Positions 1 through 11,554 of a stretch of 64,000 nt of DNA are shown one piece after another. The DNA is taken from NCBI GenBank assembly GCA_003526375.1, contig DPDG01000050.1, positions 52,283 through 116,282 of the forward strand, given 5' to 3'. The notes beneath the pieces are model-generated. The model ran no database searches. It was given only the letters and a program-made list of their open reading frames with translations, and was not told where the DNA came from. Position 1 is the stretch's first letter. Each line of letters begins with the position of its first letter. The position numbers and the translations under genes are program-made. The stretch is from Lentisphaeria bacterium. Its GTDB lineage: Bacteria; Verrucomicrobiota; Lentisphaeria; Victivallales; UBA1829.

Positions 1-325
1 CGGGCCAGGTCGTCTGCACCTGCGTGATCGAGGCGAGATAAACGTAGAAGCCGAGCGCCGCCATCACGCCGATGATCAGCCGCTGGGCGGAAAGCGTGCC
101 GTCCGTCACATAAACCACGACAAGGATCGCAAGAAACGGCAGGGAAAGCACCGACGAAGAAAGCGGGAAATCCAGACTCTGATACCCGATCAGCATCCGC
201 AGTCCGGTCGCACCGGCGAACTGGGTGAAGATCAGGAGAACTCCGGCGGCGATGTAGAACGGAGTCGCGCCGAGCACTTTGCGCAAGCCGTGAAGAATCA
301 GCAGTCCCACGAGAATGAAAGTCAT
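1..325 (-). CDS. Polytopic membrane protein, 5' part only (continues beyond the left edge)
   Basis: Absent from the ORF track because it has no stop in the window. Reading the reverse strand from ATG 325..323 gives MTFILVGLLILHGLRKVLGATPFYIAAGVLLIFTQFAGATGLRMLIGYQSLDFPLSSSVLSLPFLAILVVVYVTDG..., open down to position 2. It has helix-length hydrophobic runs and lies on the same strand 56 nt downstream of mcsB. Family not recognised. Confidence 0.45.
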   Translation of the reverse strand, partial: MTFILVGLLILHGLRKVLGATPFYIAAGVLLIFTQFAGATGLRMLIGYQSLDFPLSSSVLSLPFLAILVVVYVTDGTLSAQRLIIGVMAALGFYVYLASITQVQTTWP

Positions 326-381
326 CTCAAGAATGGTGAGACAGCATCCGTAAAAGATTTCCACCGTATCCGTTTCCTTTT

Positions 382-1446
382 TTATTCCTGAAGGAATTTT
401 CTCAACAGCGCCGCCCTGACGACATCCCGGTTCTCCTGATTCAGCTCATGCCCTTCGTATTTCTGAAGATGCGCCGCCTGCACCAGAAGGAAAAGCTCGT
501 TGACCGTATGAATATTCACAGACTGAAACATATTCAGATCCACCCCAAGCCGCAGGGCGGAAAGGGAATTCAGGGATTCGTCTCCGGTGATGATATAGGA
601 ATGCTTCAGCAGGCCGTAAGCGCGTCCGATATGGTTCATCAGGTAGCACTGGCGGTTCGCAAGAAGCAGGGCGCGCGCTTTCTTCTCATGGGCGATGATC
701 TGCGAAATCACGGTGGAAAGCCGCCGGATGATCTGATCTTCGCTCTCTCCGAGTGTACTCTGGTTGGAGATCTGGTAAAGATTGCCGAGAGTCTGGCTGC
801 CCTCCCCGTAAAAGCCACGCACCGCGAGCCCCAGCTTGTTGACTCCCTGCACGACAGCCTGAATCTGATTCGTCAATACAAGCCCCGGCAGGTGGAGCAT
901 GACCGACGCACGCATTCCGGTGCCGAGATTCGTCGGGCAGGAGGTCAGATAACCGAATGTTTTATCGAAAGCAAACGGAAGCTGCACTGAAAGTTCGTCG
1001 TCAAGACGGTTGATCTGCTGCCAGATCTCATTCAACTGAAATCCGGGGGCAAGCACCTGAAGCCGCAGGTGATCCTCCTCGTTGATCATGACGAATGCTC
1101 CCTGTTCCCGGTTCGTCACCAGCCCGGAACCGTGGCGCGGATTCAGAAATTCACGGCTGATCAGGTGCCGTTCCAAAAGAAAACGGCGATCCAGTTCAGA
1201 AAGTTCATCCACCCTGAACACGCTGGTATTGGAATCTTTCATCGAATCCACCTTTCCGAGAGCGCTGAACACGGAATCGCGGATTCCGCCAAGGGTGGCG
1301 TCGTCGGAACGGATCGGAAAAGGCTCCCCGGATAAATTTCGTGCAAGGCGAATCCGGCTGCTGATCGCAATGTCATCCTCCGGTCCGTTGTCCATCAGCC
1401 AGCAGACAGGCTGCCGGAACAGGTTGTCGATCTGTTCATCCGGCAT
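382..1446 (-). CDS. mcsB: Protein arginine kinase McsB (ATP:guanido phosphotransferase family)
   Basis: Guanidino-kinase active-site signature CPTNLGTGMRASV. McsB-like N-terminus GPEDDIAISSRIRLARNL. Also NEEDHLRLQ. I moved the start from the track's TTG (1464) to ATG 1446, which is preceded by GGGGAGG. Confidence 0.9.
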   Translation of the reverse strand: MPDEQIDNLFRQPVCWLMDNGPEDDIAISSRIRLARNLSGEPFPIRSDDATLGGIRDSVFSALGKVDSMKDSNTSVFRVDELSELDRRFLLERHLISREFLNPRHGSGLVTNREQGAFVMINEEDHLRLQVLAPGFQLNEIWQQINRLDDELSVQLPFAFDKTFGYLTSCPTNLGTGMRASVMLHLPGLVLTNQIQAVVQGVNKLGLAVRGFYGEGSQTLGNLYQISNQSTLGESEDQIIRRLSTVISQIIAHEKKARALLLANRQCYLMNHIGRAYGLLKHSYIITGDESLNSLSALRLGVDLNMFQSVNIHTVNELFLLVQAAHLQKYEGHELNQENRDVVRAALLRKFLQE

Positions 1447-2002
1447 GGCTGTCCTCCCCGTCAAGCTCTTTTTTCAACTCTATGATTCTGTCCCGGAGAA
1501 CAGCGGCTTCTTCATACTCCTCATTCCTGATCCGCATTTCCAGCTCCTGCTGGCAGTCGGCGATCTTCTTGCGGAGAGCTACTTTCTCAATCACATCCTC
1601 GGTCTTATGGTTCGTTTCATGATTTTGCGGAACCTTTCCGAGATGAGTGCATCCGCGGTGCATGTTTCCCAGCACGCCGGCAAGCGCTTCCGAAAAAACA
1701 AGATAACAGTCGGGACACCCCAGGCGCCCGGTCTTGCGGAAACGTTCCGTATCCCAGCCGCAGGTTCCGCATTTCACGGCGGCGGCAGGCGCGGCGTCTT
1801 CGGGAGCGTCCGCACTCTCCGCAGCTTTCTCATTCGTGAAATTATAAAGCATCTCGGCAAGGTTGAAACTCTGGAGAATCGGCTCTGTTTCCGCTTTCTT
1901 CGAGGCGCATTCGCCGCAAAGGTGAAACACCTTCTTCTCGCCGTTGATGATTTCCTGCACATGAATCGTGGCAGGATTCTTATTGCAGATCTGGCACAGC
2001 AT
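1436..2002 (-). CDS. mcsA: McsA-like activator of protein arginine kinase (zinc-finger pairs plus UVR motif)
   Basis: Paired Cys motifs CQIC...CGEC and CGTC...CPDC. C-terminal UVR-type helix EEYEEAAVLRDRIIELKKEL. It overlaps the mcsB start by 11 nt, which suggests translational coupling. Confidence 0.8.
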   Translation of the reverse strand: MLCQICNKNPATIHVQEIINGEKKVFHLCGECASKKAETEPILQSFNLAEMLYNFTNEKAAESADAPEDAAPAAAVKCGTCGWDTERFRKTGRLGCPDCYLVFSEALAGVLGNMHRGCTHLGKVPQNHETNHKTEDVIEKVALRKKIADCQQELEMRIRNEEYEEAAVLRDRIIELKKELDGEDSHAG

Positions 2003-2024
2003 GGAAACAGCTCCTTGTCAAAAT

Positions 2025-2753
2025 TCAGAATGAAACGTTCACATCTCCGCTGAGCGTGTGCGGCGGCGGGACAATAAAACAGCCGGAGGTGTTGTTCCAG
2101 TCACGGTCCCAACTGTTCAGCATCAGAGGATCGGTCGGGGGTCCCCACGGATTGACATCGACAATCAGAATTTTACCGCTGGCGGTAAAGTAGATGTCCA
2201 TCGCGCAGTCGCGCATTTCCAGAATCGGAGCAATTTCATTCACGAATTTTTCAGCCTTGGACCAGTAGGCATCTTTCAGCTTCACCAGACGCCGGAAGTG
2301 GCGGATCAGCCAGTATTGGCTCATTGCCAGCAGTTTGCCTTCGCGGATGAAAAGCCGGTATTCACGGGTCACATCCATGCGGCGGAACGGGCGGACACAG
2401 ATGCAGGAAACGGTTCCGGCGGCAGCGGCATTGCGCACTTTCGAACTCTCGGCAAGAACCGCCCATGCGCTTTCCGCAGAACTTACCGCACCGCGTTTCT
2501 TGAGAAAACGCTCCGTATCGGTGGGAGCGGCGGAATCCACGGAAACGAAACGCGAACCGCTGAAAGTTCTCAACGCAAGCTTCAATCTCGGAATCAGGGC
2601 GGCGACCACGGCTCCGGAAGTCTCGCCTGCGGCAAGAGCGGCGATTTCGGCATCTTTCAGGGTCAGGAACACAGCAGGGAAACTGTTTGAGGACAGCTTC
2701 GGATACCAATCCTGCATTCTGAAAAAGTCATAGTTCTTTACAATGAATCCCAT
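2025..2753 (-). CDS. Cdc123/D123-family ATP-grasp-fold protein
   Basis: Full-length resemblance to eukaryotic Cdc123. Matching boxes are DWYP near the N-terminus, RFVSVDSAAPTD, EYRLFIREGKLLAMSQ and DIYFTASGKILIVDVNPWGPPTDPLMLNSW. ATG 2753 is preceded by AGAAGGTGA. Confidence 0.7.
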   Translation of the reverse strand: MGFIVKNYDFFRMQDWYPKLSSNSFPAVFLTLKDAEIAALAAGETSGAVVAALIPRLKLALRTFSGSRFVSVDSAAPTDTERFLKKRGAVSSAESAWAVLAESSKVRNAAAAGTVSCICVRPFRRMDVTREYRLFIREGKLLAMSQYWLIRHFRRLVKLKDAYWSKAEKFVNEIAPILEMRDCAMDIYFTASGKILIVDVNPWGPPTDPLMLNSWDRDWNNTSGCFIVPPPHTLSGDVNVSF

Positions 2754-2769
2754 GCTTCACCTTCTTTCG

Positions 2770-3720
2770 TTAAAATATGTCTTCATCATCCTTTTTCGGC
2801 GGATTCAACTGCTTCTGAATACGGCTGAACACCACCAGATGATAAGTGAAAAATGCAATGAAAAATACCGTCTGGAAACTCAGGAACGGAACTCCGATTC
2901 CGGAAAGCAACGCGGCAATAATCAGCGGAGGAACCGCCGCATACACCGTAATGACCAGAACCGTCCGGAAACTCATTCGGCGCTCCTGTGCGTTGGATGA
3001 CCAGAAATACTGCGCCAGCGCAAAGAAGAAAACCGTAAAAACTCCCAGCATGGACATCCCGAAAAATGCCATGCAGAATATCACGAAAGCCACGCCGGAA
3101 ATCATCTGCCCGGCAACAACAGACGGGTTGTCAACGGAATAACCGTCCGGCCAGAGAGACAGGTTTCCGATTTTCTCTCCTTTTTTCAAACTGAAACCGT
3201 CCGCCAGATACGTGCCGAGCTCGGCTTTCGATTCCATGAGCCGCATCATCGGAATTTTCTTTGCCAGATCGCCGTCCGGCACCGAACTCATCACCATATA
3301 TTGCTCATGTGCTGCATCCGGCATACTGCGGAACCACGTGATGATTGCGCGGTCCAGCAGGACAATCCCGCAATCGGAATCCCACTTTTTTACAGCATCC
3401 GCCTGAAACGTGCCGCCGGGAAAATAATCAAGCCGCATCATCGGATTCAAAATGTAGCTTTGAACATGATCGGGATTCTTCAGGAGACGAATTCCCGCAT
3501 CCTTTGAAATCTTCACTCCGCCGACCTGTTCGAAAAGGACATTGCAAACACGTTTGATCTCCCTGCCGATGAAATAAGAGTTCACTGCGGCAAGAGAGAA
3601 AGAAAGCAGAAAGATCAGCAGGACAAAATGAAAAAACGCGCGCCAGAGGGAACGGTTCATCAATTGCAGAAATACCGTCGTTCCGGTGCAGACTTGAAAC
3701 ACTGTCCTGAAAAAATTCAT
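2770..3720 (-). CDS. Membrane protein of unknown function
   Basis: N-terminal TM (FFHFVLLIFLLSFSLAAV), an about 190-aa non-hydrophobic middle and several C-terminal hydrophobic helices. It begins 3 nt after the def stop, which suggests it shares an operon with def. No family recognised. Confidence 0.6.
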   Translation of the reverse strand: MNFFRTVFQVCTGTTVFLQLMNRSLWRAFFHFVLLIFLLSFSLAAVNSYFIGREIKRVCNVLFEQVGGVKISKDAGIRLLKNPDHVQSYILNPMMRLDYFPGGTFQADAVKKWDSDCGIVLLDRAIITWFRSMPDAAHEQYMVMSSVPDGDLAKKIPMMRLMESKAELGTYLADGFSLKKGEKIGNLSLWPDGYSVDNPSVVAGQMISGVAFVIFCMAFFGMSMLGVFTVFFFALAQYFWSSNAQERRMSFRTVLVITVYAAVPPLIIAALLSGIGVPFLSFQTVFFIAFFTYHLVVFSRIQKQLNPPKKDDEDIF

Positions 3721-3723
3721 AGG

Positions 3724-4341
3724 CTAGGAAACCAGTCGTTTAATTGTATAATCTTTATTGCCGGACTTTCTGATGATCTTTTCCAGCTCCGGCAGCATCT
3801 CCTCGAAATCCGGCGATTTCACTCTCTGGACATACACCACGCCGTCCAGATGGTCAAGCTCATGCTGAATCGCACGGGCAAGAAGCCCGCCGCAGTCCAA
3901 CTGAATCATCGGTCCGTCCAGAATCTGCGCCTTCAGCACGACCGAAACCGGACGCTCCACCGGAGCATAAACTTTCGGAACGCTCAGGCACCCCTCTTCA
4001 CGGGTCTCCAGCGCTTTGGAAAAAGAAACGATCTCCGGATTGATGAGCACAACCGGCATCTTCGGGCAAAGTTCCATTTCACCCGGAGAAAGCGGCATGA
4101 CAACATTGCCCGCCTTGTCCGTCGGCGGATCGACATGCAGAGCAACCATGCGCAGAGTCACACCGACCTGCGTTGCGGCAAGCCCGATTCCATCTTTTGC
4201 ATACATCGTCTCAATCAGCTTTTTCCCGAACTCGCGGATTTCATCGTCAATTTTCTGAACCGGCTTCGCCTTCACATGCAGAACCCTGTCCCCGAGCGTC
4301 CTGACGGACATCACTTTCTTTTTGCCTATATTAAGCATCAT
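3724..4341 (-). CDS. def: Peptide deformylase
   Basis: All three PDF motifs are present: GIGLAATQVG, EGCLSVP and HELDHLDG. GAGGTGAA RBS before ATG 4341. Confidence 0.93.
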   Translation of the reverse strand: MMLNIGKKKVMSVRTLGDRVLHVKAKPVQKIDDEIREFGKKLIETMYAKDGIGLAATQVGVTLRMVALHVDPPTDKAGNVVMPLSPGEMELCPKMPVVLINPEIVSFSKALETREEGCLSVPKVYAPVERPVSVVLKAQILDGPMIQLDCGGLLARAIQHELDHLDGVVYVQRVKSPDFEEMLPELEKIIRKSGNKDYTIKRLVS

Positions 4342-4352
4342 TTCACCTCAAA

Positions 4353-5945
4353 TTACTGCGCAGCCGGAAGCGCAAGCGTCTTTCTGATCCGGACCGCGCA
4401 CGCCGCCGTCCCGATCACCGCCGCGGTTTCATACATACTGCCGCCGACCGTCACACCGGTCACAGCGACACGCAACGGCTGATTGAGCTTGCACGCGCCC
4501 ATGCCGTTCTCCTCCTCCACTTTGCGCAAAGCCGTCTCGACTTCGGCGTCCGTCATGGAGGGGCTCTTTTCAAAAAGATCGGCAAGCATGGCAAGCGCCT
4601 TGCGCGTCGTCTCGTCCGAAAGCAGTTTACGGAATCCTTTCGGATCGTATTCCAGTTCATCCGTAAAGAAGTATCTCCACGAATTCACATCCTGATACGT
4701 TTTCGTGCGCGACTGCATCAGAGCCGCCACCTTGCGGAAAAGTTCACGATCCGCATCGGCACGCCAATCCCAGCGGGCGGCAAAATCCCAAACCTCGGAC
4801 TCGAATCTCTCAAAAGGCATCTCGGCAATATACATGCCATTCATATTCGCCAGTTTCACAAGGTCGAACTGCGCAGGAGAACGCTGGGCGCGGTCAATCG
4901 AAAAAGCCTCGATCAGCTCCTGCTTCGTCATTTTCTCGCGGTTGTCGCCGGGAGACCATCCCAGAAGCGAAAGGTAATTGAACAACGCCTCCGGCAGGAA
5001 ACCTTTCTCGCGGAAATCACCGACGAAGGCATCCCCGTCCCGCTTGCTGTACGGTTTTCCGGCGGCGTTGACCAGCATCGGCAGATGCGCATAGGACGGC
5101 GGCGTGAAACCGAGTGCCTGAAACAGGAAAAGATGACGGTAGGTGTTCTCCACATGGTCGTCGCCGCGCACAATATGCGTCACCCGCTGTGTCACGTCGT
5201 CGCAGACATTCGCAAGGTGGAATACAGGGCTTCCGTCGCTGCGGATGATGATCAGATCCTTGATTCCGTCCAGCGGCTTCGCCAGTTCGCCTTTCACAAG
5301 GTCATTGTAAAAAGCTTCGCGGCGCGTAAACTCGAAAGCGGCGGCGCCTTCGATCACTTTCGGCTCGGCAAGCCCTTCGATCTCTCTGATATTGGAGGAG
5401 TCCAGCGTGAAAATCACATTTCCGGCGGAATCGAAAACATTCAGATCCTTGAATCCGGCAAGGCCGCCGGCATTCTCAACGGTTTTGCCCTTGTGGTTGA
5501 CTGTCGACCAGATCAGTCCGGCGCGTGAAACGGAGAAAACGGAACCGGGCGCAAGCTCGGTCCTGATGCGTCCGCACTGACGGACAAACGGATAAGAGTC
5601 GCACTCATACGGCAGACGGAACAGAACCGGAGATCCGTTCTGTCCGGGGTTCAGCTCGTAGGCGTAACCTTTGGCAATCAACTCGCGCGCCGCCTCCTTG
5701 TGATGCCCGCTCTGCGAGGTCTGATACATCACTTCCCCGTCGTAGTCCAGACCGAGCCACTTCATGCATTCAAAAAGTGCATCGATCGCCTGTTTCGTGG
5801 AACGTTCGAGGTCCGTATCCTCAATGCGGAGAAGAAACTCCCCTCCGCAGTGCCGGGTGTAAAGCCAGTTGAAAATGGCGGTTCTGATGTTGCCGATGTG
5901 TACCTGCCCCGTAGGGGAAGGTGCGAATCTGGCTCTGAAATCCAT
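4353..5945 (-). CDS. gltX: Glutamyl-tRNA synthetase
   Basis: RFAPSPTGQVHIGNIRTA (HIGH region), LRIEDTDLERS and a KMSKS-like PYSKRDG. The start is trimmed from 6029 to ATG 5945 (MDFRARFAPSPTG), where class-I GluRS N-termini begin. Confidence 0.92.
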   Translation of the reverse strand: MDFRARFAPSPTGQVHIGNIRTAIFNWLYTRHCGGEFLLRIEDTDLERSTKQAIDALFECMKWLGLDYDGEVMYQTSQSGHHKEAARELIAKGYAYELNPGQNGSPVLFRLPYECDSYPFVRQCGRIRTELAPGSVFSVSRAGLIWSTVNHKGKTVENAGGLAGFKDLNVFDSAGNVIFTLDSSNIREIEGLAEPKVIEGAAAFEFTRREAFYNDLVKGELAKPLDGIKDLIIIRSDGSPVFHLANVCDDVTQRVTHIVRGDDHVENTYRHLFLFQALGFTPPSYAHLPMLVNAAGKPYSKRDGDAFVGDFREKGFLPEALFNYLSLLGWSPGDNREKMTKQELIEAFSIDRAQRSPAQFDLVKLANMNGMYIAEMPFERFESEVWDFAARWDWRADADRELFRKVAALMQSRTKTYQDVNSWRYFFTDELEYDPKGFRKLLSDETTRKALAMLADLFEKSPSMTDAEVETALRKVEEENGMGACKLNQPLRVAVTGVTVGGSMYETAAVIGTAACAVRIRKTLALPAAQ

Positions 5946-6079
5946 GATGCTGCTCCTTGAAATAAAGTATGCGCAAAAGTTGTCTGGACCTTTGCGCCGC
6001 TGAAAAATAATACAACTATAGTTTGACAATCAGGCTCCGCAGGAGTTCCCCTCCGGAGCCGTCTGCACGGTAAAAACAA

Positions 6080-7510
6080 TTAATATTCACCCGTTGCCGC
6101 GGTAAGCTGAGCTTTGGCGTTATGCATGTTGATGACATAGGTCGCCAGAGAAGTCTCGGCATTGACGAGGTCACGCTGAGCTTCATTCAAACGGGTCAGC
6201 TCGGTATTGCCGGCGCGGTATTCCTCCTCCACAAGGTCACGGATCTTCCGGTAAAGTTCCAGGCTTTTCTGTGAAATCTTGACCTGCTTCAGGCATGTCA
6301 GATAATTATCATATGCGGTTCTGACTTCGGCAACCACGGTAATCCAGGTATTTGCCAGAGAGTAGTCGCTCTGAAGCATTGCCGCCTGATAATTTCTCAT
6401 CGTGAAAAACGTCTTGCCGCCGCTGAACAGTTCCCAGGAAACATTGCCGCCGTAATTGAAGTTGAAAGACTCATACTTCTGAGTGTTGCTTCCGCCTTTA
6501 CTGCGCAGTTCAGACCCGTCGTAAGCTTTGGTGCGTGTCTGCCCCACGGTATAACCGACACTGGCATTGAAAGAAACCGTCGGGCCGAACGAACAGATCG
6601 ATCCCCAGTAATTGTATTTGGCGACTTCCAGAGCCTCGCGGTAGGCTTTGAGGTCGGGACGGTTCGCCAGCGCGGTATCAAGGTAAACGGCAAGAGTGGA
6701 AAGCACTTCTCCGTCGGGAGACGGCACTCCGGGGAACTGGATTTCTTCAGGAATCGTTCCTTCGGTCAGCCCCATCAGTTGCGCCAGAGCGTATTTGGAG
6801 GCGGCAAGCTGATACTGTGCCGCATACAAATCAGACTCTGCGGAGTTGTAATATGCCTTGAAGTTGAGCACGTCGCTCAGGGGAACCGCGCCGACTTCGA
6901 ACTTCAATTCATTTTCTTTCAACTGCGAATTCTGGAACTTCATGTTTTCCTGAGCGATCTTTATCTGGGCTTTCGCAAGAAGGATGTCATTGTAAGTATA
7001 GGCGACAGTCCTGATGAGGATACGTCTCGCATCCAGCTCCAGCGCTTCGCTCTGTTTCCAGTTGTGCCGCGCGGCAAGGAGGTTCATTTCTCTCACGAAA
7101 GAGTCGAACAGCAGCCAGTTCGCGCTGGCGCTCGGCGTATTTTCAAAGGTTCTGGAACCGTTCTGCGTGATGCCGTACACATTGTTCGGTTCATTGAAGC
7201 TCTGCTGAATCGAATAACCGGCGGTAATGGTGGGCATGTAAGGAGCAAACGCCGCATAATATGCCGCGCGCGCTCCAACAACCGCGAAATACTTCGTTTT
7301 GAAGTCGGGGTTGTTCTGGACGGCGAGGTTCTGAGCGTCTTCCAGCGTCAGAAGCTTCTGTGTAATATCCAGCTTCTGGTGTTCCGCGCCGGGAATACTT
7401 GTGAAAGCGCTTCTGGAGACCGCCACCGGCGGTTTCGGGTAAGAGGTGCACCCTGCGAGGATAACGAGCCCCGACAGAGCAAATGCTGCTGCAATCCGTT
7501 TCTTGTCCAT
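6080..7510 (-). CDS. Outer-membrane efflux protein (TolC/NodT-type lipoprotein)
   Basis: Signal peptide plus lipobox (LVILAGC). Two OEP-type repeats with typical openings LTLEDAQNLAVQNNPDFK and NRPDLKAYREALEVAKYN, and long Q/A/L-rich helices. The start is trimmed to ATG 7510 (MDKKRIAAAF). Confidence 0.85.
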   Translation of the reverse strand: MDKKRIAAAFALSGLVILAGCTSYPKPPVAVSRSAFTSIPGAEHQKLDITQKLLTLEDAQNLAVQNNPDFKTKYFAVVGARAAYYAAFAPYMPTITAGYSIQQSFNEPNNVYGITQNGSRTFENTPSASANWLLFDSFVREMNLLAARHNWKQSEALELDARRILIRTVAYTYNDILLAKAQIKIAQENMKFQNSQLKENELKFEVGAVPLSDVLNFKAYYNSAESDLYAAQYQLAASKYALAQLMGLTEGTIPEEIQFPGVPSPDGEVLSTLAVYLDTALANRPDLKAYREALEVAKYNYWGSICSFGPTVSFNASVGYTVGQTRTKAYDGSELRSKGGSNTQKYESFNFNYGGNVSWELFSGGKTFFTMRNYQAAMLQSDYSLANTWITVVAEVRTAYDNYLTCLKQVKISQKSLELYRKIRDLVEEEYRAGNTELTRLNEAQRDLVNAETSLATYVINMHNAKAQLTAATGEY

Positions 7511-7702
7511 TTCGTAAAAATCCTTTAGCCTGTTTATAAAAAGCCCTACGACCTGCTGTTTTGCTACCCATCTACTTATAAAGAGGGTATTATACACTTA
7601 TTTTTGCGCTAATTCAAACCTGATAACCCTCTGAAATGCTTTTTTTATTAAATTATTTTACTCCTGAAATAAAATTCTCATCCATTTTTCTTCTGAAAAC
7701 GT

Positions 7703-7792: not shown

Positions 7793-10700
7793 TTATTCCA
7801 AAAGGAGCCAAATAGATTTCCAGGCCGGAAGCTCCAGTTTCAAACAGTCAGTGTCTTTTGCAATGATTTCTCCTGTCATTGCATTCCTGACAAATCTCGC
7901 TTTTCCCGGCAACTGAATGCTATAAACACCGCTTACGCATGAATGAAGACTCAAGAAAGAAGAATTCACCTCACAAAGCACACCGGGACGCGTCACAGTG
8001 TAGCACCCAGCTTCTTTTGCGAGATTATGAAGCAGTTCAGCATCCAGTCCTCCGGGAGCGGCACAAAAAACACTGGTCCAGTCACGAAAGCGTTTTACCC
8101 CCAAAGCCGCTTTTCCATCATTGAAACGCCCTAGAATTAAAGCATCTTTATCATCAATTTCAAAGCAGGGAATAAAGAAACGGGAGTATTGAGAATTACG
8201 AAGATCATAATATCTGCGCTGAGTATCCGCCACCCCCATGTTAAGAGGAAGCCCTCTGCTTAAGCTATCATTGAATTCAGATTTCCGGACTTCATAATTT
8301 CTCGGCTTATCATTATAAACCAAATGAAAATTGGTAAGCTTTTCTGTCAGTTCCGGTCTGAAGGCATGTTCCGTCAACATTCCGGTAGAATGAATCCAAA
8401 CGATGACATTGCCGTTTTTCTTCAGGTTCCGTTCAATGAAATCTCGCTCCGAAGCCTGAAGCATATGAGCATTCATGAATATGAAGATTTTATGTTTCCT
8501 GTAATTATCCCCGGCAATCAAGTCATCAAGAAAATAGGCTGCCATCGGCACACCGGAACGACGCAGGCCATAAGCCATAACATCAAGCAAATGGGAAGCC
8601 CAGTTTCCCCTGAAATGAGAAAAAGGAATATCGTAGAAGATACTTTTCTGATGATATACCAACGCCACATCCGGAACAAAGGAATCCTTATCATTGCGTT
8701 GTGCAACGATATCTGAAACTTCACGAACTTTTCCGATTACCTTTACTGCTTCGGGATGCCGATAGGAATTTGAGCCGATATCGTAATACCAATACCCGTG
8801 TCCATTTGCAATCTGGCGTCCGGCATCTTTCATCACCTGTGTCTGAAACTGCCGCTTTGAATAAGGAACGCCTATCCACATATCCTGAACTTCGTTATAA
8901 ATGCAACGCATCCAGTTTCGGGTATCCAGTTCGGCAATGACAAGCTTTCCGTGCCGCAAAAATGAATCTGCCACCATATTCAAACCTCCAGACAACCCTG
9001 GAAGGCGGTTACAGTAAGAAGGCTGCGGAACAAAGGCATCATAATCTGTTTTAAAGAATTCAGCAAAATTTTTCATCCAGCCTCCTCCCATACAGTAAGT
9101 CATAGCAATCTTGTCTTTGCCGAACTCCTCTTTGAATATTCTGGCAAAGCGGGCGGAATTCTGCCAGATACGCGCCTCTCTGAATTCCCTGTAATCAATA
9201 TAGTTGCGGTATTTTGCCGGATCGAACAGAATTCTGCCGTGTAATTCTTTTGCATCAATTACCGGGATCTCCGCTGTTTCAATACGTACCCCGGGCCTAT
9301 TCCATGCTTTTGCCAGACAATCATCCTTACCGTACAAATCCCGCAGATAACGCCGCCAGGCCGCAAGCGCGGGTTTGCTGTAATCATCACGATGGATCAT
9401 AAACTGTCCGTCATGCCCTCCGGCAATAAAAACGCCGGCGATTGCCTTACTGTAAGGTTTTTTCTTCAATTCCCGAAAAATATTGCGCACTGTATCTTCT
9501 GCAAGGCTCCATGCCTTGTCTGAATATTGTGACGGCCAATAGAAATAAGAGGAATCAGGAAGTTTGCCGAATCCCCGGAGATGCACATTGTTGCCATACC
9601 CCTTTTGTCCTTTGGCATCAATCCATGCCTCCTCGGGATTCTTATCAACAAAATTGCGCGGCAACATCACCGAGACCCCTAATATAAACGTAGCGTCCGG
9701 AGCCCTGCGGATCGCATTTTCGACACCGGAAAAAATCATGTCCCAATTAATTTCTTTTCCATTCCACGGAGTTCCGAATGGCGGATAGTTCAGACGTTCA
9801 TCCAGTCTGATATTCGCCAAATGCAACTTGACTCCACCATGGCGGTACATATAATTGCAATCTCCTCCATAGTTGTCTGCTTTGTACAAAACCGGAGAAA
9901 TCTTTGTCCCATTGAGAAGCAGAGAGAGTTTCCGATTCTTTTCTCTTACGACTGCAGCGGTTGCGCAAGGACGCCCGGATATGATCTTTTCCGCATCTTC
10001 CAATGTATAGACAGACTGAATAACGGACGGTCCGGCTTCATGGACTTTGAAAGGAGTCGCCGGAAACTGAACATTATCAATCCAGACCGTCAACGGATTG
10101 CCGTAAATTATGATGGCAGGATAAAGCTCATAATCCCGTTTCTTCGGCTTGAACATAATACATCTTCTGGACCATGCGTGCGAAGGCGTATTGCGTATCC
10201 GGCTCTGGCTCTCGATCCCCCATCCCCTGTTCAAAGAGGGATCATCATTCAGCATATCTCCCTGCGCTGTAATAAAACGAGGCAAAAGCAAAGTATTGTA
10301 AGAGGCATTGACAGTTCTGAAAAAGAAACGAAATGTCAATGGTGACAGTATCTTTTTGTCTGCCGCCGGTATAGTCACAGGCATTTTACTGCGAAGAATG
10401 ATATAACCTTTCCCATTGTCTTTTGTAATTTTAAGCGACTGTTCGCCCCTGTAGCAAACATTCGGATCAATCTCGTAAGAACCAGTCGCCCCATCCTTGA
10501 ACTCGACAGTCCACCCGATCAGTTTTTTCCCCTCCGCACCTTCAAAATCACCGTCAGGAAGTAGCGAGGCATTGGTCAAGGCGACAGGGGGAGATGCCCA
10601 CTCCACGGCATCTTCCAGCTCCGTGGGAACGCCATTTTTCATAGCGCGGATGCTGGCTCCAAGCGTCAACCGGGCACGATGGTTTCCTCCCAGCAGGATT

Positions 10701-11554
10701 CTCCTGATTGTATTATATGCCGCACTGCCCATACAGCATAATGCGCGGGCGGCATGAACACGAACAGGTTCACTGGAATCGTTCAGTAACGTTTCCGCCA
10801 GATACTCCCGCGCAGGAAGCGCTTTGCTTCCCAAATCCCCCAGCTTATAACATGCCCGGTTGCGCACAGTCGGCGACGGATCCGCAAGCGCAGCCAGAGG
10901 CAGTTCATAATCAGAACTCTGCAAAATGCGGCTGATCTTTTCTCCATCTGAAAGCAACTTGAACTCCGGCGGCAGAACGGGCGGTGCAGGCTGTACCGTC
11001 TGGCAACTGATCCGGGAAATATCCAGTTCTCCATGAACAATAAGCAGAACGGCAGTATTGTCAATGGACAATGGAATCTGCGATGACGGCATGATCAGAC
11101 ATTTCCTCTGCTTCCCTCCATCAAACACCAGCGTCTGCGCAGCCTTGACGGTACGGAGATATTTTCCTTTGGCATCATAACAGAAAAAGCCGAAAACAAC
11201 ACTCCCTTTCCCAGATGCATCAATCATCAGCTTACAGTCCGAATCACCGATCTGTCTGCGCATAATCCGATAATTTCTCGACTGAATACGCAATCCCTCA
11301 CCCTCTGTTTTGACACTTAAAAGACCAGTCTCTGAAGAAAAAGATACTTTGCCCCCTCCTCCTTTGTATGACGCAACTGTCCAGAAGCGGGGAAAAGTCT
11401 GCCCGGAAAAGCAAATGCGGTTCTTTTCAAAATGCTTTCTCAAAGAAGAATCCAAACGGACGGACTCCCTGAATTCCGGATTGAAGAAGACTTCTTTCGC
11501 TTGAATCACAGAACATCCGAAAAGACAAATTAACAGCAACAGTAACAATCTCAT
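7793..11554 (-). CDS. Very large secreted protein: HEAT-like repeats plus carbohydrate-binding-like and GH42-like (beta-galactosidase-type) regions
   Basis: Signal peptide MRLLLLLLICLFGCSVIQA, possibly a lipobox (LFGC). HEAT/PBS-lyase-type repeats (PSPTVRNRACYKLGDLG..., SSEPVRVHAARALCCMG). A DGDFEG...W jelly-roll-like segment. A C-terminal half whose ...KIFIFMNAHMLQASERDFIERNLKKNGNVIVWIHSTG segment resembles the GH42 trimerisation/GATase-like domain. The functional call is tentative. Confidence 0.6.
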   Translation of the reverse strand: MRLLLLLLICLFGCSVIQAKEVFFNPEFRESVRLDSSLRKHFEKNRICFSGQTFPRFWTVASYKGGGGKVSFSSETGLLSVKTEGEGLRIQSRNYRIMRRQIGDSDCKLMIDASGKGSVVFGFFCYDAKGKYLRTVKAAQTLVFDGGKQRKCLIMPSSQIPLSIDNTAVLLIVHGELDISRISCQTVQPAPPVLPPEFKLLSDGEKISRILQSSDYELPLAALADPSPTVRNRACYKLGDLGSKALPAREYLAETLLNDSSEPVRVHAARALCCMGSAAYNTIRRILLGGNHRARLTLGASIRAMKNGVPTELEDAVEWASPPVALTNASLLPDGDFEGAEGKKLIGWTVEFKDGATGSYEIDPNVCYRGEQSLKITKDNGKGYIILRSKMPVTIPAADKKILSPLTFRFFFRTVNASYNTLLLPRFITAQGDMLNDDPSLNRGWGIESQSRIRNTPSHAWSRRCIMFKPKKRDYELYPAIIIYGNPLTVWIDNVQFPATPFKVHEAGPSVIQSVYTLEDAEKIISGRPCATAAVVREKNRKLSLLLNGTKISPVLYKADNYGGDCNYMYRHGGVKLHLANIRLDERLNYPPFGTPWNGKEINWDMIFSGVENAIRRAPDATFILGVSVMLPRNFVDKNPEEAWIDAKGQKGYGNNVHLRGFGKLPDSSYFYWPSQYSDKAWSLAEDTVRNIFRELKKKPYSKAIAGVFIAGGHDGQFMIHRDDYSKPALAAWRRYLRDLYGKDDCLAKAWNRPGVRIETAEIPVIDAKELHGRILFDPAKYRNYIDYREFREARIWQNSARFARIFKEEFGKDKIAMTYCMGGGWMKNFAEFFKTDYDAFVPQPSYCNRLPGLSGGLNMVADSFLRHGKLVIAELDTRNWMRCIYNEVQDMWIGVPYSKRQFQTQVMKDAGRQIANGHGYWYYDIGSNSYRHPEAVKVIGKVREVSDIVAQRNDKDSFVPDVALVYHQKSIFYDIPFSHFRGNWASHLLDVMAYGLRRSGVPMAAYFLDDLIAGDNYRKHKIFIFMNAHMLQASERDFIERNLKKNGNVIVWIHSTGMLTEHAFRPELTEKLTNFHLVYNDKPRNYEVRKSEFNDSLSRGLPLNMGVADTQRRYYDLRNSQYSRFFIPCFEIDDKDALILGRFNDGKAALGVKRFRDWTSVFCAAPGGLDAELLHNLAKEAGCYTVTRPGVLCEVNSSFLSLHSCVSGVYSIQLPGKARFVRNAMTGEIIAKDTDCLKLELPAWKSIWLLLE

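Follow-up and report, generated by a model that had tools for sequence, protein, structure and literature searches.

A Cdc123/D123-family ATP-grasp gene beside mcsAB in a Lentisphaeria genome and its likely place in a def-membrane protein operon core

Why does a relative of the eukaryotic protein Cdc123 stand directly in front of mcsA and mcsB in a Lentisphaeria bacterium? The stretch of DNA that raises this question (GenBank assembly GCA_003526375.1, contig DPDG01000050.1, positions 52,283 to 116,282; 64,000 nucleotides (nt), hereafter the window) carries at positions 2025..2753, on the minus strand, an open reading frame (ORF) with an ATG start whose product of 242 amino acids (aa) belongs to the Cdc123/D123 family (R2K.1) of ATP-grasp proteins. 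It lies within the gene string gltX, def, a membrane-protein gene, D123, mcsA, mcsB and a histidine-kinase gene (window 1-6029, all minus strand), in which the intergenic distances from gltX through def, the membrane-protein gene and D123 to mcsA are 11, 3, 16 and 22 nt and in which mcsA and mcsB overlap. An initial annotation of this locus, exact in its coordinates, its 22-nt gap to mcsA, its 16-nt gap to the membrane-protein gene and its single strand, had proposed that D123 could form a new protein-modification module with McsA and McsB. We lean, with little more than even confidence, towards a different reading: D123 is a slowly evolving, cytoplasmic member of a Lentisphaerota-centred Cdc123/D123 (R2K.1) subfamily, its operon core is def, the membrane-protein gene and D123, mcsAB joined this core later, and its partner may belong to the nascent-chain machinery.

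The family assignment is supported by both sequence and predicted structure. The Pfam D123 model (PF07065) matched the 242-aa protein with 64.6 bits against a cut-off of 24 (E=1.1e-17), and the R2K_2 and R2K_3 models likewise scored above their cut-offs. Human Cdc123 (8phd) was the sole significant sequence match in the PDB with phmmer (E=3.4e-7) and was found at E=8.9e-16 with a 20-sequence family profile; hhalign aligned the subfamily to 19 other D123 proteins, eukaryotic and bacterial, over 226 columns at E=3.8e-46. The AlphaFold2 model had a mean predicted local distance difference test (pLDDT) score of 86.7, and its best 10 Foldseek matches were all Cdc123 structures (4zgo, 8phd, 4zgp, 4zgq, 4zgn), with template modelling (TM) scores of 0.75-0.79 and E ~1e-14. 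The next-best matches, D-Ala-D-Ala ligases (Ddl), RimK and LysX, reached TM scores of only ~0.4-0.48. The protein is a Cdc123/D123-family ATP-grasp member with a Cdc123-type fold, as the initial annotation had claimed, and the three motif boxes said to correspond to eukaryotic Cdc123 aligned as described with both HMMER and hhalign. A profile search of 1.84 billion representatives placed it in a discrete subfamily, the full-length members scoring 157-362 bits and all else at most 99 bits. NCBI labels the cluster of the window protein 'ATP-grasp domain-containing protein [Victivallales bacterium]'.

Within this fold the active site is altered. Burroughs, Zhang and Aravind (2015) define the R2K clade by an absolutely conserved Lys in strand 2 of the RAGNYA unit (human K104) together with a Lys or Arg in the next loop, the second basic residue standing at differing spacings among R2K families; in human CDC123 this second residue is R111 of the SAPRD motif, which contacts ATP. 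In the profile alignment (hhalign), K104, the Lys of FPKLNW, falls on Ser71 of the window protein and R111 on Thr78, within APTD, so that both basic residues of the R2K signature are missing. The first-box match to Cdc123 therefore holds as an alignment, while the replacement of the K104 and R111 equivalents had been overlooked. The loss extends through the subfamily. Position 71 is never Lys or Arg in 80 orthologues (S53, F12, C4, T4, G3, A3), and all but one of these 80 have Thr at position 78. Nearly all of 15 diverse subfamily members agree at both positions, a Lys occupying the K104-equivalent column in P0138 only. Six other residues, E131, R133, Q146, D186, D199 and N201, are invariant in 80/80 orthologues. 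The ExR motif (E131-x-R133), the mid-strand Asp (D186, human D233) and D199-V-N201 (human D246-x-N248) all aligned with hhalign, and the invariance of E131-x-R133, Q146, D186 and D199-x-N201 therefore points to a predicted nucleotide/Mg2+ site under selection. Two invariant arginines that set this subfamily apart, R124 and R130, are candidates to compensate for the lost K104 and R111 equivalents.

The subfamily also shares a C-terminal tail. In the window protein it reads SGDVNVSF (residues 235-242), its codons and the stop codon lying at 2025..2048 on the minus strand; G236 is found in 80/80 orthologues and F242 in 74/76, and the tail is conserved across the whole subfamily, including the members linked to ffh described below (e.g., KGDIKVTY, KGDVTVDC). 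Residues 237-242 have pLDDT values below 50 and are predicted by AlphaFold2 to be disordered. The hydrophobic-x-hydrophobic C-terminus resembles a ligand for a PDZ or other C-terminal-recognition domain; alternatively, the tail could be a self-substrate.

A scan of one genome per GTDB species returned 126 genomes with a relative, and every title among them that names a taxon gives Lentisphaerota, Victivallales or Victivallis. We kept 80 loci with 10-kb flanks and mapped the neighbours in them by tblastn with six proteins of the window. At the loci without mcsAB, median identity to the window protein was 55.5% for D123, 55.4% for GltX, 48.0% for Def and 26.0% for the membrane protein. D123 evolves as slowly as the essential GltX, while its membrane partner evolves very fast; conservation at this level is taken as a sign of purifying selection and shows D123 to be part of the core gene set, not of the accessory or conflict genes.

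The adjacency to mcsAB proved to be a local feature. Downstream of D123, mcsA and/or mcsB was present in 11 of 69 informative genome loci, while the other 58, all from Victivallales or Lentisphaerota, had neither gene within 10 kb of D123; 10 further genome loci were truncated and hence uninformative for mcsAB. Two metagenome loci (L120 and L129) also carry mcsAB next to D123 and belong to the same clade. In a neighbour-joining tree of D123, the 11 genome loci, these two metagenome loci and the window form one monophyletic sub-clade, so that tabulating neighbourhoods confirmed the adjacency beyond this genome and at the same time confined it to a single sub-clade. At loci without mcsAB the gene downstream of D123 differs nearly every time and is often convergent, which indicates that D123 is normally the last gene of its operon. 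In two complete genomes the genes lie far apart: strain ZTH (3.2 Mb) has D123 at 1.95-1.97 Mb and mcsAB at 1.46-1.47 Mb, a distance of 0.5 Mb, and OY787460 (8.6 Mb) has D123 at 8.19-8.21 Mb and mcsAB at 3.57 Mb, a distance of 4.6 Mb. Synteny seen from both the D123 and the mcsB sides thus led us to reject a conserved D123-McsAB module, and we are confident, short of certainty, that the mcsAB adjacency does not represent a conserved functional module. Most simply, two blocks, each conserved in its own right, came together a single time, in the ancestor from which the sub-lineage of the window descends. The adjacency is consequently weak evidence for function, even though D123 and mcsAB are probably co-transcribed in the window, where a terminator would not fit inside the 22-nt spacer between D123 and mcsA. 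In agreement with the initial annotation, whose author knew of no described D123-McsAB linkage, a literature search gave no paper that names Cdc123 together with McsB.

The long-term neighbours of D123 are of a different kind. By tblastn, def lies upstream of D123 on the same strand in 69/80 genome loci, and does so in many metagenome loci as well; gltX precedes def in ~50/80. The membrane protein was detectable by tblastn in 59 of the 80 loci, and an ORF of constant membrane-protein architecture stands directly upstream of D123 in ~75/80, with gaps mostly between -26 and +40 nt. The tree of the subfamily divides into a basal clade linked to ffh, a small mixed group with unrelated neighbours, and a large def-membrane-D123 clade that holds the mcsAB sub-clade and in which the stop and start codons of the membrane gene and D123 often overlap. 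In the basal clade, ffh (SRP54) is directly upstream of D123 in 5/5 informative loci (L081, L093, L097, L098, L100), with map (methionine aminopeptidase) upstream of ffh in three of the five. The stretches concerned lie at 4526-8221 in L081, 2781-5720 in L093, 36-2945 in L097 and 33-2972 in L098; the start and stop codons overlap at the ffh/D123 junction in L081 and L093, and a gap of ~3 nt separates the genes in L097 and L098. What follows D123 in the basal clade varies: rseP (an M50 protease with PDZ domains, one locus), an AMP-binding enzyme or pdxJ. At the ribosomal exit, nascent chains are classically acted on by three factors, Def, Map and SRP54. That D123 adjoins the first of these in one clade and the other two in another is the best hint at its function that we have. 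The recurrent genomic theme of D123 suggests nascent-chain processing and targeting, and a link of D123 to the nascent-chain machinery is a possibility that we raise tentatively, well short of calling it probable.

A few relatives depart from this pattern. The members that have moved beside V-ATPase or carboxyltransferase/mreC genes are few and lie inside the large clade, in L139 D123 persists with neither def nor the membrane gene, and P0159, a more distant D123 protein, has a phage-like context. The contigs of three other distant D123 proteins, P0157, P0186 and P0135, were too short to show their neighbours. The metagenome scan was seeded with a 4-sequence alignment of outlying members; a metagenome scan with P0138 as the single query gave no matches.

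The membrane-protein gene (2770..3720, minus strand, 316 aa), separated from D123 by a 16-nt spacer (2754-2769), encodes a product that matches Pfam DUF1189 of the Yip1 clan with 30.4 bits against a cut-off of 28; DUF1189 is a family without known function. In the AlphaFold2 model of the protein (pLDDT 82), one transmembrane helix at the N-terminus and four at the C-terminus flank a beta-rich domain of ~130 aa, at residues ~67-198. Across 68 orthologues the loop at residues 243-250 holds 1.9 Lys and Arg residues, against 0.1-0.2 in the neighbouring short loops. On these positive-inside counts the beta domain and the C-terminal tail of the membrane protein would be cytoplasmic and within reach of D123. 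In two sister genomes (L009 8576-9817; L010 6992-8290) the membrane partner is 413-432 aa long through an insertion within its soluble domain, and its gap to D123 is widened to ~150 nt.

In the explanation that we propose, def, the DUF1189/Yip1-clan membrane protein and D123 form a conserved operon core, usually with gltX first and typically with D123 last, and the block of mcsA, mcsB and a VUPS histidine kinase was placed directly behind D123 in the sub-lineage of the window. Judged from the invariant ExR, Asp and DxN residues, the D123 protein would still bind nucleotide and Mg2+, its phosphate-contacting basic residues presumably re-arranged, the K104 and R111 equivalents being lost and R124 and R130 being invariant and subfamily-specific. 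Like eukaryotic Cdc123, it would probably assemble or remodel a protein partner in an ATP-dependent manner; a role as protein ligase is possible. Because D123 recurs in two contexts, def with the membrane protein and map-ffh, this partner would be sought among the factors that process and target nascent chains where they leave the ribosome and at the membrane. The more specific proposition, that the Lentisphaerota-centred D123 is a vertically inherited housekeeping factor of co-translational maturation or targeting which works at the membrane or the ribosome exit with Def, Map or SRP54 and with the Yip1-clan partner, and would thus be a translation-linked Cdc123 of bacteria, we hold to be unlikely as it stands.

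Several observations count against this explanation. Within the clade of the window the D123-mcsA spacing stays at ~22-40 nt despite divergence of D123 down to 55% and of McsB down to 65% identity, and there may be local functional coupling of D123 and mcsAB in that clade. A PDB fold search with the membrane-protein model gave no significant match and hence no recognisable fold or function. Other subfamily members adjoin genes for V-ATPase subunits, carboxyltransferase/mreC, DAHP synthase or UDP-glucose dehydrogenase, and the functional link to def, map and ffh is guilt by association, which comes down to some two independent changes of gene order in housekeeping operons whose expression is high. 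Finally, with both R2K basic residues gone the protein could be non-catalytic. The original proposal had D123 modifying or ligating proteins together with McsA/McsB, acting on them or in parallel to them, in a new tagging and quality-control module. It draws on the shared strand, the 22-nt gap with no terminator signal, the persistence of the adjacency in 13 related loci at D123 identities of 55-97%, and the concern of both systems with protein fate. An adjacency that arose once, is missing from 58 informative genomes and dissolves into distances of 0.5 and 4.6 Mb in the two complete genomes makes such a module very unlikely, all the more as mcsA has a strong ribosome-binding site of its own, mcsAB has its own conserved histidine-kinase partner, and the D123 subfamily is elsewhere linked to def or ffh. 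A scaffold of the pseudo-ATP-grasp type, non-catalytic and with ATP binding lost, would account for a K104 equivalent that is never Lys or Arg and an R111 equivalent that is almost always Thr although R111 contacts ATP in the human protein. We consider it quite unlikely; the six residues invariant in 80/80 would be unexpected at a dispensable nucleotide/Mg2+ site, R124 and R130 could compensate, and the second basic residue stands at varied spacings among the R2K families of Burroughs et al. (2015).

The operon position may also be merely historical, with D123 riding in well-expressed housekeeping operons and acting on a target that has nothing to do with def, map, ffh or the membrane protein. 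The subfamily members in unrelated contexts, the retention of D123 in L139 in the company of neither def nor the membrane gene, and the conserved C-terminal tail in clades without the membrane partner all fit this account, which we nevertheless rate as rather unlikely. Nearly every member of the large clade has the pair of membrane gene and D123, whose stop and start codons often overlap, and chance would be unlikely to bring D123 beside def in one clade and beside map-ffh in another, given how few factors act on nascent N-termini, these three among them. Extremely improbable, by comparison, is a protein of the described bacterial CDC123 type, an accessory of type VI secretion system (T6SS) polymorphic toxins or a secreted effector, even though these are the sole bacterial CDC123 contexts described in the main text of Burroughs et al. 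(2015). The nine genes within ~11 kb include zero T6SS, toxin or immunity genes: the neighbours are those for a histidine kinase, McsB, McsA, the membrane protein, Def, GltX, OEP and a HEAT-repeat protein, with no VgrG, Hcp, PAAR or SUKH among them. The 242-aa protein is a minimal domain with no N- or C-terminal extension, and its inheritance looks vertical and order-wide with conservation like that of an aminoacyl-tRNA synthetase. A PADLOC defence-system search gave no match, and PHROG only a marginal one (E=6e-4) of unknown function. A T6SS, effector or defence role was rejected on the neighbours and the PADLOC result.

Comparison with known systems places the protein closest to eukaryotic Cdc123 (4zgo, 4zgn, 8phd), with which it shares a fold over essentially the whole protein (TM score 0.79), the motifs WYP near the N-terminus, ExR, SQ, Asp, DxNP(W/F)G and TD-x-L-x-x-W, and a gene placed among translation-linked genes. 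Eukaryotic Cdc123 is an ATP-binding assembly chaperone for eIF2 and an ATPase, for which no ligase activity has been found. The window protein differs in its length of 242 aa, without the eukaryotic inserts or C-terminal extension, in an identity of only ~18-19%, in the change of K104 to Ser, Phe or another residue and of R111 to Thr across the subfamily, in its subfamily-specific tail (GDVNVSF), and in its target, which cannot be eIF2-gamma because bacteria lack eIF2-gamma. From the ligases of the RimK/tubulin-tyrosine-ligase type, with which it has the ATP-grasp fold and an ExR arginine typical of the peptide-ligase assemblage in common, it is set apart by a TM score of only ~0.44, by the missing strand-2 lysine and by the lack of an identifiable acceptor protein. 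By analogy with these enzymes a ligation chemistry of this type is possible for D123.

That bacterial Cdc123 homologues have no assigned function, as the initial annotation stated, is correct; yet Lentisphaerae members are catalogued as CDC123-family in Burroughs et al. (2015), who include a Lentisphaera araneosa seed with the motifs of the window subfamily (VVGLDSCMPTD, RPYRRMDKTREFRLF, SWERDW), and the family and its presence in Lentisphaerae are thus already published. The bacterial versions described in the main text of that paper are T6SS-linked and Legionella-type only. These share the Pfam family with the window subfamily, which stands instead in a housekeeping context (def and the membrane protein, or map-ffh) and not in a T6SS or effector locus. 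The def/map-ffh housekeeping context, the Yip1-clan partner and the loss of both R2K basic residues are not in that main text. Eukaryotes cannot do without Cdc123, whose roots have been traced to bacterial conflict systems; here a bacterial lineage has a Cdc123 homologue as a slowly evolving core gene beside def or map-ffh. If the association is functional, it would offer a tractable bacterial model for the role of the Cdc123 fold and another view of the tie of the family to translation, and if the housekeeping reading is true, the translation link would predate eukaryotes rather than arise from conflict-system effectors. For work on McsAB the result is negative, with no evidence of a new accessory enzyme for arginine-phosphorylation tagging, and the idea of a D123-McsAB quality-control module should be dropped.

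Peptide deformylase, def (3724..4341, minus strand), matched PF01327 with E=3.5e-45 and ends 3 nt ahead of the membrane-protein start. The glutamyl-tRNA synthetase gene gltX, identified from its ORF translation, is listed at 4353..6029 (minus strand) from a mechanical ORF call that begins at TTG 6029; its true start is likely the ATG at 5948, which would give the canonical N-terminus MDFRARFAPSPTG. A scan of window positions 1-6400 for promoters and terminators gave signal counts equal to those of shuffled controls and was hence uninformative. A terminator-like hairpin at 5997-5971 (10 bp stem, then a T-run) lies between the OEP/TolC-like gene and gltX, in a scan that was overall not above shuffled controls, and would be consistent with an operon beginning at gltX. 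The TolC-like OEP gene (6080-7597) lies downstream of the gene for a 1253-aa protein (7793-11554, minus strand) that has an N-terminal signal-like segment and a short HEAT-repeat match only and is otherwise unannotated. Across the whole 64-kb window (1-64000), Rfam at the gathering threshold and tRNA scans returned zero families and zero tRNA or tmRNA genes.

On the other side of D123, the 22-nt spacer (2003..2024, minus strand) carries an AAGGAG ribosome-binding site ~8 nt ahead of the mcsA ATG. The mcsA gene (1436..2002, minus strand) encodes a putative McsB activator of 188 aa with CxxC pairs and a UVR motif; it matched NCBIfam McsA (NF053706) at E=3.2e-39 with 134.6 bits, below the cut-off of 210, and Pfam UVR with 25 bits against a cut-off of 21.5, and it overlaps mcsB as expected. 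The protein arginine kinase gene mcsB (382..1464, minus strand) matched PF00217 (ATP:guanido phosphotransferase catalytic domain, E=7e-68) and scored above threshold with the NCBIfam equivalog NF002194 (410.5 against a cut-off of 385). Its listed ORF of 360 aa starts at a TTG and extends 6 residues beyond the closest homologues (354 aa; homologue range 354-356 aa); the ATG at 1446 is likely the better start, giving 354 aa, and the mcsA/mcsB overlap would then shrink from 29 to 11 nt.

At the window edge, which truncates the gene, positions 1..325 (minus strand) encode the N-terminal part of a VUPS/PAS sensor histidine kinase; this part is 86% identical to residues 14-121 of a 656-aa protein of L001 whose domains are VUPS, PAS, HisKA and HATPase_c. 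Victivallales and Lentisphaerota widely possess McsB, and the trio of mcsA, mcsB and a VUPS/PAS histidine kinase also occurs in L088 (730-4326), L089 (5429-9045) and L090 (5472-9072), which lie outside the mcsAB-adjacent D123 clade and have unrelated genes upstream of mcsA; two of these three loci come from the complete genomes of strain ZTH and OY787460. The kinase of the trio, ~650 aa long, combines a PAS domain with a membrane domain of the VUPS (vitamin-uptake-like) type. Neither ctsR nor clpC adjoins mcsAB in the window, L088, L089 or L090. Compared with the ctsR-mcsA-mcsB-clpC operon of Firmicutes, mcsA and mcsB are both present and overlap as in Bacillus; the differences are the VUPS/PAS histidine kinase after mcsAB, the lack of adjacent ctsR and clpC, and D123 ahead of mcsAB only in the sub-clade of the window. 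With this conserved trio of mcsA, mcsB and histidine kinase, Lentisphaerota may regulate arginine phosphorylation through a different circuit.

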